From a virus (lineage: Duplodnaviria > Heunggongvirae > Uroviricota > Caudoviricetes), in the IMG/VR virus record IMGVR_UViG_2939521961_000007: a DNA stretch of 32,179 nt, one strand, 5' to 3'. The position numbers were made by a program. Position 1 is the first letter of the stretch, and every line of letters begins with the position of its first letter. Positions 3,001 through 6,000 of the stretch are shown one piece after another.

Positions 3001-6000
3001 TGTTTGCGCATTGATGCCGAGATACGCTTCCAGTCTTCGCGGTCGTTGTCGATAACTTCATTTTTTGCCCAGCGATGGATGCTGCCGTCAATGTTTCCGG
3101 CATCCACATCACCAGGCCAGAGAGCGTAGGCCAGTTCTTCATCCAGCGTTTTCCATGTCTGCTTGTATTCGCGACAAATGGCGGCAGTGACTGGGTTGAT
3201 TTTTCCTGCTGAGTTTTCAGTGTTCTGTTGATTGACTCTGGCGCTGGCGAGATCAACAACAGACGTGTATTTTCCAGTCTCTTTGCGCTCTGCGTCCTGC
3301 CGTTTTTTCCAGTTACGTAATTCAGCCTGAATTTCGGGCCATTTGGCACCCGGATTACATTTGTGTTTAACCCATCCGATAGCGAACAGTTTGCGTTCCG
3401 GATACATAGCGTTAATTTCAGGCGTTTTCATCAGTGCTTCAACGATATGCCCGTCAAAGGTAGCAACGTCTTCCTGCAGTAATTCCTGCGCGTCAATCGC
3501 CATATCAACGGTGATGTTTTCACATGTACCGAACTTAACCAGGACCGCGTTCTGTACTTCAAGGGACAGCTTGTCAAAATTGACGTTCATCGGATCGGAT
3601 TCTGGTTCGACCGGAATAAAGGAAGCGGATTCCTCATCCCAGCGGTTTTCCTGCATATATTCAGCATCCCAGGAATCGAGGGCAGGGCGGGGTATACCGG
3701 GTTTATCCTCGCAGACAAGAAATTTATAAGCGCAGTCCTGAGCAGCCGGATAATGTTCCAGGAATTGCCAGTGAAATTTTGCGCGGGCGCGACGTTCATC
3801 ACCGGCTTCAATGGCAGTGGCTACAGCGACGGCACCTTCTTCCTTTATTGCCTGTTCGTCCGGAATGGCGGCGCAAATAAAGACTTTACTCATTTTGTTT
3901 TAACCTCATTACAGATTTCAGGGTGAACGAATCCCTGCCATTGCTGGCATTTTTAATCCGTTGGTATGGCGTTAATATGGCTGGCGGGTTATCCAGCCGG
4001 TATTTCGTTATTCAGGTTCAGCGATACTTTTTTTAACGGGAGGCATTCACCGGGGATTTTTTGTTCGTCCCTTACCTGAATGCAGGATGACTTACTGTCA
4101 TAAATTCCGGTAATCACATTTTGTGGCTCACCCGTTATAAGAAAAACGGTCATCACCAGTGCAAATGCTGAAGTCACTGCTGTTCTCCGATAATACCAAG
4201 TTCAAGAAGGGCAATTCTGGAAAGTATGGAATTATCATTGAGAAGATAAGGTTCATATTTTCTCATCTTAATGGCATCTTCCGTAAACTCCCGGTTACTG
4301 AGCAGAACACCAATATCAAAACAACCTTCAGACGTATTAACGTTTGGTAATAACGTTTCCATTATCGCGTCCTCAACAATGAATTTTGTGATGCGGTGCC
4401 TGGTGCCTCCAGGTGACGTTAACCAGTTAACAATTAACGCCGGATACAGAGAATCCACCCATAACACTGTTTTTGGTTTTAACTGTTCCGCGTGCGCTCA
4501 GCCGCATTCACCACATCACAAAATTCACTTTAAAAAGGGCGGCAGAGCAGTCACGGAGTAAAACTGATACCGCCAAACGTCACCAGAAAATTGATAACAG
4601 AGGGCGTTGCAGCGGGGTTGTCACTTAAGCGTATGGTCAACCTGACAACCCGGTGTCCTCAACGGGGAAGGAATAACCCCTCCATACTTACCGCCGCGCC
4701 ATTTCGCGGATTGCCACAACCGGAAGCGCACGGTCGACGAAAATTTAACGACAGGCTATCTATGAACCAGCTACCTCGCCGTGCGCTTTCGCGTTATGGT
4801 CTGACTTTTCAGAGAAATATCCTTTCAGTAAACTGTCAGTGCCGGATGTTCACCCGTGTCCGGCGCACGCACTCCACTTCACCCGTGGAGAACTCCTTAA
4901 TTACCAACCCTCAGGAGGGTGAATGTTAAAATCAACTCTTATTGCTAAATGCCTTTATCAAAATCGCATGGTAAGCAGCATTTCAATAGGCGAGTCTGCA
5001 GTTAAAAGTATTTTCGAAGAGTACTTTCCCGGGCATGATTTTAATAAATGGAATACCAAATTACCGCCAGCAGTTTCAACGCGTATTCTGAAAGCAACCG
5101 AAAGAGCAAGTACAATTCGCGTTAACTATTTCATTAAAGATTTGTGGGATCTTTGATATCCACAGAGCCTAAAGTATGTGCATATGGATGTGCTATTATG
5201 CGCCCTCGCAGATTTGCATCATTTTCTAAATTCACTGAACGAAACAGGGCATCAACAAGGCTCTGTACAATGCAAAGGCAATCGAAGACTGTCGCCGTTT
5301 CTGTTTTGATTGATGAAAGAACATGGCCATTCACGCAAACAGAAATTACCCGTTTATTAACATCGCTTTCCTGCTTTTGATTATCAGAACCATATAGCCC
5401 AGAAAAAGCATTGCGCACATTACGAACCATATTATCGATGGTTTCTTTTTCTGCGGTACTAAGGTCAAGAGTAGCCAGTTGTGAACGAACTATATTCGAT
5501 GCCATTTCCTGTAATGGCGTTGGTAAATCTTTAAATTCCATTATTAGCCTCGTTGGTTAGCTATTAACGTGGGTATGTAATCATTCTGGCAATGCTTAAT
5601 GCCGCTGCTTTTTCCAGATTGGTGATATCCTGCTCCAGAGCGGACAGATTTTCAGCCTGCTTAGCCCTGGCTTCATTGGCCCATTTCAGGTCCTGCACCG
5701 CCTTAATTTTCTGGTGCATCCACTCATAAAGTTCATCATCGGTATAGTCTGGCGCGATGATGACGGGGTCTCGTTTCTGCATGTCGGCTCCTTGTGGTTA
5801 GCGTTGCCTGCTTTTTAACCACGTCAGGCGAGGTGGTATCCTCTGAGGGGTCTGTTACTCGAGAGGAAATTGGTTATGAATACAATCAAGTTTTCTTGCC
5901 CAGAATGTGGTGGCTAAGTCTTTGACACATCCTTTAAGCCGCAGGGCTCTGACAGTTTCGCGGGAGCCATCTGCAAAAATTGTGGTCACCTTGTAACTGA

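Follow-up and report, generated by a model that had tools for sequence, protein, structure and literature searches.

A convergent, 3'-overlapping gene pair in the early-left operon of a lambdoid prophage belongs to a conserved two-gene module with a possible role in superinfection exclusion

Why should a small protein-coding gene lie on the opposite strand of a repressor-controlled phage operon, with its 3' end running into that of an operon gene? This question is raised by a stretch of viral DNA of 32,179 nucleotides (nt; IMG/VR record IMGVR_UViG_2939521961_000007, Caudoviricetes), referred to below as the window, in which a plus-strand open reading frame (ORF) of 77 amino acids (aa), ORF77, converges with a minus-strand ORF of 135 aa, ORF135, in the early-left (dicB) operon of a lambdoid prophage. 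A sequence-only reading had described the pair, its 3' overlap of 23 base pairs (bp) and the strong AGGAGG ribosome binding site of ORF77, and it was accurate on each of these (Table 1). It had also recognised no family for either protein, and searches of Pfam, NCBIfam, PADLOC and the PDB came back empty. Conservation in related prophages, the lack of which it had named among the grounds for refutation, was found, both genes being kept across genera; they represent an obligate, ancient, convergent two-gene module that overlaps at its 3' ends in all but two loci. The true conserved unit is ORF77 together with the C-terminal domain of ORF135, which we call domX, and not ORF135 as a whole.

Both ORFs are real genes. 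ORF77 matches phrog_10348 (E = 1.1e-47), has a median ratio of non-synonymous to synonymous substitution rates (dN/dS) of about 0.19, with dS near saturation, which indicates purifying selection, and gives an AlphaFold (AF2) model of a five-helix, all-alpha fold with a predicted local distance difference test score (pLDDT) of 96.7 and a predicted template modelling score of 0.85. The protein is predicted to be soluble and has no transmembrane-like segment (maximum 19-residue Kyte-Doolittle hydropathy, KD19, 0.59). Homologues of 77 aa with 55-72% identity occur in Klebsiella, Raoultella, Serratia, Dickeya, Yersinia, Xenorhabdus, Morganella and Salmonella, and a profile search of 1.84 billion representatives placed 163 clusters in the family, nearly all of 74-80 aa. 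It is scarcely credible, given these results, that ORF77 is untranslated, its strand yielding an antisense RNA or nothing and its reading frame being a shadow of selection on the other strand. Such a view could point to the lack of an identified promoter in the window, but only 23 of the 234 bp of ORF77 overlap the other gene, so that most of it is under no constraint from the opposite strand, and the substitution ratio, the strong Shine-Dalgarno sequence, the very confident model and the narrow length range of the clusters all speak against it.

ORF135 begins at an ATG with GAGG 6 nt upstream, 22 nt past the stop codon of ydfC. That it is a real gene follows from its match to phrog_1363 (E = 4.8e-47) and from the median dN/dS of domX, about 0.34, again with dS near saturation and indicative of purifying selection. 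In its AF2 model (pLDDT 67.5) residues 8-50 form a helical hairpin at the N-terminus; after a disordered linker come a beta-hairpin (65-79) and a pair of helices (85-111), and the tail is of low confidence. There is no transmembrane-like segment (maximum KD19 1.58). The two halves of the protein have different distributions. The N-terminal 50-60 residues (MEFKDLP...) recur in many E. coli proteins (106-212 aa) whose C-termini are unrelated, and in KKo003 identity to the window starts again at position 5414 (blastn). The 75 residues of domX carry the motif VNG..L..I.T..AVAADY..F....AL....LE.EAN.SGKTI.H..F.TFGS.PI. and stand alone, as proteins of 75-80 aa, in Serratia, Dickeya, Hafnia, Klebsiella, Citrobacter, Erwinia, Pectobacterium, Enterobacter and others; elsewhere domX is fused to a YdfC-like N-terminus (Yersinia) or to a ClpX-type zinc finger. 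A Walker-A reading of EANxSGKT was dismissed, as the motif is not kept in E. coli and the protein is only about 77 aa long.

The association of the two genes was surveyed in a sample of the window and 139 fetched loci, IMG/VR contigs included; a profile search of genome contigs with domX had given one confirmed locus, and IMG/VR loci were used instead. ORF77 and domX occur together in 134 of the 138 sources with either gene (the window among them), and in every one of these 134 paired loci, from Enterobacterales to Herbaspirillum, they are convergent. The overlap measures 23 bp in 98 comparisons, 26 bp in 23, 33 bp in five, 51 bp in eight and 53 bp in one, the exceptions being L061 and L139, where both genes align to the window cassette and the ORFs are 189 and 95 bp apart. 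ORF77 lacks domX in a single source, L123, a contig whose end falls within ORF77, while L017 and L034 have domX beside a neighbour other than ORF77. The distance matrices of the two genes correlate (Mantel r = 0.665, 0/2000 permutations), divergent ORF77 subfamilies accompanying divergent domX subfamilies, and a Herbaspirillum prophage (Betaproteobacteria) has retained the pair with its 23-bp overlap. In many loci the overlap region is a hairpin that includes both stop codons; no conserved bidirectional intrinsic terminator was found in or beyond the overlap, the hairpins having no consistent U-tracts.

These data make it very unlikely that ORF77 and domX are unrelated neighbours, joined by nothing other than the tail-to-tail insertion of cassettes, with the overlap a by-product of a shared 3' hairpin or terminator sequence. 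That explanation would accommodate the hairpins, the many antisense genes in these prophages that follow a common upstream element (described below) and stand tail-to-tail with or overlap various sense genes, by 0 to 257 bp, and the occurrence of one C-terminal family with two partners in E. coli. It does not accommodate co-occurrence in 134 of 138 sources, across genera and into the Betaproteobacteria with the geometry conserved, nor the correlated divergence of two genes whose subfamilies travel together.

The limits of the inserted DNA can be seen by comparison with the Qin prophage of K-12. The sequence-only reading had proposed an insert of about 40% GC at 4591-5541, and an insert there is, with a GC content of 39.1% (46% over the full window), exactly missing from K-12 Qin; its start, however, had been placed 319 bp too early. 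Positions 4591-4909 have 53.3% GC, are about 96% identical with K-12 and form a conserved spacer between ydfC and dicF that lies outside the insert. In a blastn comparison with the K-12 locus (L002), window 4251-4909 corresponds to K-12 1852-2510 and window 5544-5782 to 2511-2749, K-12 positions 2510 and 2511 being contiguous. The intervening 634 bp begin 13 nt 5' of the ORF77 ATG and end 2 nt past that of ORF135, so that the whole cassette is inside. The exact insert is found in 646 of 5426 complete E. coli genomes (about 12%; 599 at 99% identity or more), mostly E. coli strains that make Shiga toxin (STEC), of O157, O145 and O111.

The supposition that this site is a hotspot for cargo was upheld. 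Empty in K-12, it holds at least six alternative cassettes in E. coli between constant flanks, which are the spacer and CTCAGGAGGGTGAA-ATG on the left and the N-terminal coding region on the right. Besides the 135-aa minus-strand ORF of the window with its 77-aa plus-strand partner (23-bp 3' overlap), these cassettes pair minus-strand ORFs of 106, 126, 133 and 201 aa with partners of 91, 73, 64 and 63 aa, overlapping by 23, 11, 41 and 23 bp respectively, and one of 208 aa with an abutting partner of 69 aa. The CTCAGGAGGGTGAA-ATG start signal also serves at least five other alternative plus-strand partner ORFs. All proteins of the alternative cassettes fall in PHROGs without an assigned function. 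The 201-aa variant carries domX without ORF77, and L003, another E. coli variant cassette and the last of the four sources counted without the full pair, has neither gene, its match to the domX profile being the shared N-terminal part (residues 6-66, E = 6e-7). The idea that every E. coli cassette holds a strictly cognate pair was dismissed, since the 106-aa and 126-aa proteins have C-termini of a common family (phrog_6937) and two different antisense partners.

Further insertions occur close by. KFu019 (L004) has a second one at 2502-2957, about 100 bp away in the same spacer, equivalent to a point between window positions 4809 and 4839; it encodes a plus-strand ORF of 151 aa (phrog_1244) with a C-terminal CxxC...CxxC, a canonical copy of the upstream element before it and a weak SLATT-like match at its N-terminus (Pfam SLATT_5, E = 0.003; NCBIfam, E = 0.0019). 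In a related E. coli prophage (L150, 1194-1672) a PaaA2-ParE toxin-antitoxin pair lies between the repressor gene and the DUF1391/ydfC genes, a further sign of a cargo hotspot. The spacer itself is, on the minus strand, the 5' part of the dicF precursor and, on the plus strand, a leader common to all alternative partner ORFs. It holds hairpins at 4615-4623/4643-4651 and 4721-4733/4779-4791 in addition to the two listed in Table 1 for the element copy at its right end. An ORF of 112 aa (4591-4929), whose TTG start codon is the point from which the sequence-only reading had counted its segment, was dismissed as a gene, having no Pfam or PHROG match and sitting on this conserved spacer.

The signals around the module bear on when its two genes would be expressed. 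In most other genera domX directly follows a CI-like repressor gene on the same strand, and in Serratia and Yersinia the palindromes between repressor and cro occur twice again in the region between repressor and domX. We read these as probable oR-like and oL-like operators; with such operator-like repeats common to both regions, domX would be the first gene of a repressor-controlled leftward operon in these genera. A further feature of Serratia-like and other non-E. coli loci (among them L006, L007, L012-L016, L018, L020, L029, L030, L048 and L053) is the conserved sequence GTGGGCGTCCTGCCTGTTCGC, on the ORF77 strand about 50-70 nt 5' of the domX start, in the presumed leader of the leftward operon.

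Homologues of ORF77 are preceded by a conserved element, GCCTG-N7-9-ACCAC-N-TCAGGC-N2-3-GGTGGTATC(C/T)T, with the ATG 33-37 nt further on. Its invariant positions, TGnTATnnT (TGnTATCYT in the homologues), have the look of an extended -10 box, with a TTTTCA-like -35 at 18 nt. Two interleaved helices can be drawn in the element, in which 82.8% of positions pair as against 28-44% when the partners are slid, and one base pair is seen as C-G, U-G, G-C, U-A and A-U; support for the helices is only moderate, because the structure was derived from the same sequences. An RNA of the nutL/boxB type or like HK022 put was dismissed for this element, given the lack of a boxA, a constant spacing from the antisense ATG and the way in which G.U wobbles favour the plus strand. 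Other antisense small ORFs in these prophages follow the element too, often two per early-left region. An exact-pattern search of IMG/VR gave at least 120 copies (L151-L270), and among the matches listed 111 of 120 are followed, at 31-36 nt, by an ATG-initiated ORF of at least 30 aa; the ORFs behind these listed copies form at least 18 protein clusters, none named except one DUF1883. Taken generally, the element is about 45 bp long, with an ATG 31-37 nt downstream, and the ORF families behind it are antisense in the early regions of enterobacterial temperate phages. It resembles a promoter cassette, portable and perhaps regulated, for genes that lysogens express.

One expectation of the sequence-only reading has to be given up at this point, namely that an antisense protein-coding gene would be surprising here. 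Antisense small genes are the rule in these phages, and their position is the usual slot for accessory genes of a class to which one named exclusion gene family belongs. In the Rac prophage of K-12, sieB is antisense in the early-left operon, which the repressor controls, and is two genes away from the repressor; sieB (+) and ydaF (-), together at 4577-5217 of L271, converge with a 3' overlap of 4 bp, a layout like that of ORF77 and domX; and upstream of sieB stands a compensated form of the element, GCCCGG..ACCACC..CCGGGC..GGTGGT (L271:4462-4506). SieB, of 162 aa in Rac, belongs to the 'superinfection exclusion B' family and shares neither sequence nor predicted fold with ORF77, which is soluble and 77 aa long and is not placed in the SieB family by Pfam or NCBIfam searches. 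Lambda and P22 also carry sieB, and the SieB of P22 reportedly has a phage-encoded escape function, Esc, an observation said to go back to Ranade and Poteete in 1993; Esc is encoded within sieB, whereas domX is on the strand opposite ORF77. By analogy with domX, ydaF, an uncharacterised early-left gene of 51 aa, is a candidate partner of SieB.

We propose that ORF77 is a prophage-expressed exclusion-type factor, that domX is its immediate-early antidote and that the overlap serves to silence ORF77, a reading to which we would give a probability of about 35%. The cassette, recombined into the repressor-controlled early-left (dicB) operon, would be an accessory 'moron' with a cognate module of two proteins. 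From a signal of its own, ORF77 would be transcribed against the operon and could thus be produced in the lysogen during repression of the operon, and it would behave as an exclusion or abortive-infection type of factor, harmless until a phage infects; its expression in the lysogen is something we infer. Only once the early-left operon fires, on induction or infection, would domX be made, and by binding and neutralising ORF77 it would unblock the phage's own lytic growth. At the same time, strong leftward transcription across the 3' overlap would silence ORF77, with transcriptional interference and the pairing of sense and antisense RNA as the means. A defence or exclusion role of the pair is plausible by position and by the analogy with sieB; the binding of the two proteins, the direction of their antagonism and the exclusion role itself are likewise inferred. 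The roles of effector and antidote are assigned in this order because domX is found without ORF77, and ORF77 without domX only at the contig end of L123, as one would expect of an effector dependent on its antidote, and because ORF77 is compact and domX partly disordered, as in toxin and antitoxin.

Several results weigh against this proposal. The E. coli-type element before ORF77 (4841-4890) is degenerate and, aligned with the canonical elements, has no TGnTATCYT -10 box, and a scan for sigma-70 consensus promoters found none on the plus strand 5' of ORF77 in the window. In Herbaspirillum the module points the other way from the flanking operon and is bracketed by promoter-like and terminator-like sequences of its own, and the logic of lysogen versus early expression is therefore not universal. 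The two partners of the phrog_6937 C-termini sit uneasily with strict cognate pairing throughout. Distant members of the ORF77 family exist without domX, one of them directly upstream of a small terminase gene: this protein, P0272, of 115 aa with a C-terminal tail ending in FNGRT (metagenomic contig L148, 68-415), precedes and overlaps a Terminase_4 small-terminase gene, which is followed by that for the large terminase, all co-directional and with no domX, so that an ORF77-like fold is used outside the two-gene module, in a packaging-gene context. Nor have known families lent any help. Neither ORF77 nor ORF135 had a match in Pfam, run also on all members of both family alignments, or in NCBIfam; PADLOC-DB 2.0 returned zero families for either at E <= 1; and no PDB fold or sequence match was obtained, including to any toxin, antitoxin or defence family.

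The same facts about distribution can be set against the reverse, colicin-like polarity, in which domX on its N-terminal carrier would be a repressor-controlled early effector or toxin and ORF77 a constitutive immunity protein from the opposite strand that guards the lysogen against both leaky expression and the effector brought in by superinfecting relatives. The architecture has something of polymorphic toxin and immunity loci, in that sense proteins join a conserved N-terminus to exchangeable C-termini, with a small gene on the opposite strand after each; domX is fused to differing N-terminal modules (helical hairpin, YdfC-like, ClpX zinc finger), and ORF77 is small and all-alpha, like many immunity proteins. 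In pore-forming colicin operons, too, the immunity gene is reportedly on the opposite strand under a constitutive promoter (Colicin biology, Cascales et al. 2007). We nonetheless regard this polarity as unlikely. The occurrence of domX without ORF77 in the 201-aa variant, L017 and L034 is the opposite of the usual orphan-immunity pattern, domX is unlike any toxin domain and its tail is predicted to be disordered. Colicin and polymorphic toxin loci resemble ours in that an inducible gene, conserved at its N-terminus and variable at its C-terminus, precedes a small cognate gene on the opposite strand that can be expressed under repression of the operon, but no Pfam or PDB homology to colicin, immunity or toxin domains was found, and ORF77 and ORF135 are tiny and not exported.

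Position and structure could also be taken to mean that the module is a regulatory switch, whose proteins and convergent transcripts tune the lysis-lysogeny decision or the early operon, for instance with ORF77 stabilising lysogeny by buffering leaky early expression, and which has no anti-phage role. The module adjoins the immunity region and in most genera comes straight after the repressor; upstream there is a conserved, structured element; and the convergent overlap is kept even in the inverted module, as it would be if mutual cis-regulation were the conserved core. Against this, presence and absence together with cassette swapping among very close E. coli prophages are more typical of accessory cargo, Qin-type operons of K-12 do entirely without the cassette, structure and fold searches with ORF77 and ORF135 gave no recognisable DNA-binding fold, and the net charge of ORF77 is not conserved among homologues (isoelectric point 9.5 versus 4.9). 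A purely regulatory role is thus, to our minds, quite unlikely, more so than the reversed polarity.

An exclusion factor with its antidote would have partial counterparts among known prophage systems. Low GC content, presence and absence at exact junctions in close relatives, orientation against the lytic operon and a promoter-like signal in homologues are shared with morons, but a moron of the classical kind is one gene with promoter and terminator of its own, whereas the unit here is an obligate pair into which part of an operon gene enters. Antisense prophage loci with their own promoters have been described as a signature of lysogen-expressed morons (Owen et al. 2020, PMC7067206), and the same study reports STnc6030, a lysogen-expressed antisense RNA of the Salmonella prophage BTP1 that excludes superinfecting self phage through complementarity. 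STnc6030 is likewise a prophage transcript antisense to lytic genes, and an ORF77 mRNA reading into ORF135 could act in the same way; it is, however, non-coding and from the late region, while the ORF77 transcript would encode a conserved protein. With toxin-antitoxin systems the module shares two linked components on a mobile element, one compact and one partly disordered, and an overlap that permits antisense control. Convergent, 3'-overlapping type I systems under antisense control are exemplified by txpA/RatA and bsrG/SR4 of B. subtilis prophages. ORF77 differs from their kind in not being a small hydrophobic peptide, and both strands of our module encode conserved proteins; type II systems are co-directional bicistronic operons, unlike the convergent arrangement in 134 of 134 loci. 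Pfam, NCBIfam, PADLOC and PDB searches placed neither ORF77 nor ORF135 in a known toxin-antitoxin superfamily or fold, and literature searches on the protein accessions, ECs_2282, the dicF/ydfC hotspot and convergent prophage pairs produced nothing specific.

The element that carries the module in the window is a lambdoid STEC prophage with a repressor-controlled, Qin-like early-left (dicB) operon on the minus strand, the features of which are collected in Table 1. With 100% identity, the region matches the PPompW prophages of STEC O145:H28, described in PMC8112680, and E. coli E2865. Past dicB the operon continues with a ydfD-like DUF1482 gene and then a large exonuclease gene. A weak terminator-like site lies at 5587-5604 (+).

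Table 1. Positions of the module, its signals and its neighbours in the window
Feature	Coordinates	Strand	Remarks
DicA-like repressor gene	6419-6826	-	start of operon order
99/118-aa operon ORF	5855-6211	-	between DicA-like repressor gene and ydfC
Canonical element, GCCTG-N7-ACCAC-N-TCAGGC-N2-GGTGG, ~45-bp type	5806-5842	+	TG-n-TATCCT at 5834-5842; 34 nt to antisense ATG at 5877
ydfC	5564-5782	-	RefSeq annotation of identical E2865 locus; upstream operon neighbour of ORF135
AT-rich insert (634 bp)	4910-5543		exact gap relative to K-12 Qin; whole cassette inside
ORF135 (135 aa)	5134-5541	-	ATG start; between ydfC and dicF
N-terminal helical-hairpin domain of ORF135, ~residues 1-55	5377-5541	-	conserved right flank of cassette site
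domX, C-terminal domain of ORF135, ~residues 60-135	5134-5364	-	conserved partner of ORF77
3' overlap of ORF77 and ORF135 (23 bp)	5134-5156		both stop codons inside; imperfect palindrome TTAAAGAT-N7-ATCTTTGA
ORF77 (77 aa, phrog_10348)	4923-5156	+	antisense to early-left (dicB) operon; ATG start
Shine-Dalgarno sequence of ORF77, AGGAGG	4913-4918	+	4 nt 5' of ATG
Degenerate E. coli-type element 5' of ORF77	4841-4890	+	hairpins GCCGGA/TCCGGC (4841-4846/4859-4864) and CTCCAC/GTGGAG (4872-4877/4885-4890)
dicF small RNA	4537-4588	-	Rfam RF00039, 76.7 bits, E = 2.3e-16; downstream operon neighbour
dicB	4177-4362	-	Pfam E = 3.7e-38; next after dicF in operon

Two side observations concern these neighbours. 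The canonical element of the window is followed, at 5877-5918 (+), by an ORF of the ECs_2282 zinc-ribbon family (MNTIKFSCPECGG...) that lies wholly antisense inside the minus-strand ORF at 5855-6211; it is broken in the window by a TAA at codon 14, where relatives have GAA, and RefSeq annotates the minus-strand ORF in this genome and the plus-strand zinc-ribbon ORF in other genomes. In addition, Rfam gives a sub-threshold STnc100 match at 4330-4539 (-), spanning the dicF-dicB intergenic region plus the start of dicB (38.7 bits against a gathering score of 47, E = 4.4e-6). A cmscan search of window 3500-7500 at E <= 1 reported only DicF and this sub-threshold STnc100 match, with none at 5806-5842 or 4841-4890.

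The module of ORF77 and domX, and the recurrent architecture of antisense genes behind one promoter-like cassette, are new, with no description in the literature searched, and related modules adjoin the immunity region of many enterobacterial prophages. If ORF77 is an exclusion factor and domX its antidote, they would represent a new mechanism of competition between prophages, in strains where the traffic of Shiga toxin phages matters; they would also add two small folds not seen before and account for the interleaving of antisense small genes with the immediate-early operons of these phages. More tentatively still, the pair may be the founding example of a widespread class of exclusion and anti-exclusion modules, from Enterobacterales to Burkholderiales, built on two new folds, and one case of a general architecture in which arrays of small antisense genes alternate tail-to-tail with the immediate-early genes of temperate phages, each antisense gene being driven by one portable, structured promoter cassette that sieB has too. 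Lysogens would then have a swappable anti-phage repertoire matched to antidotes among the early genes. The promoter-like element, with at least 120 copies and at least 18 families behind it in addition to Rac sieB, provides a sequence handle for finding more lysogen-expressed phage genes.

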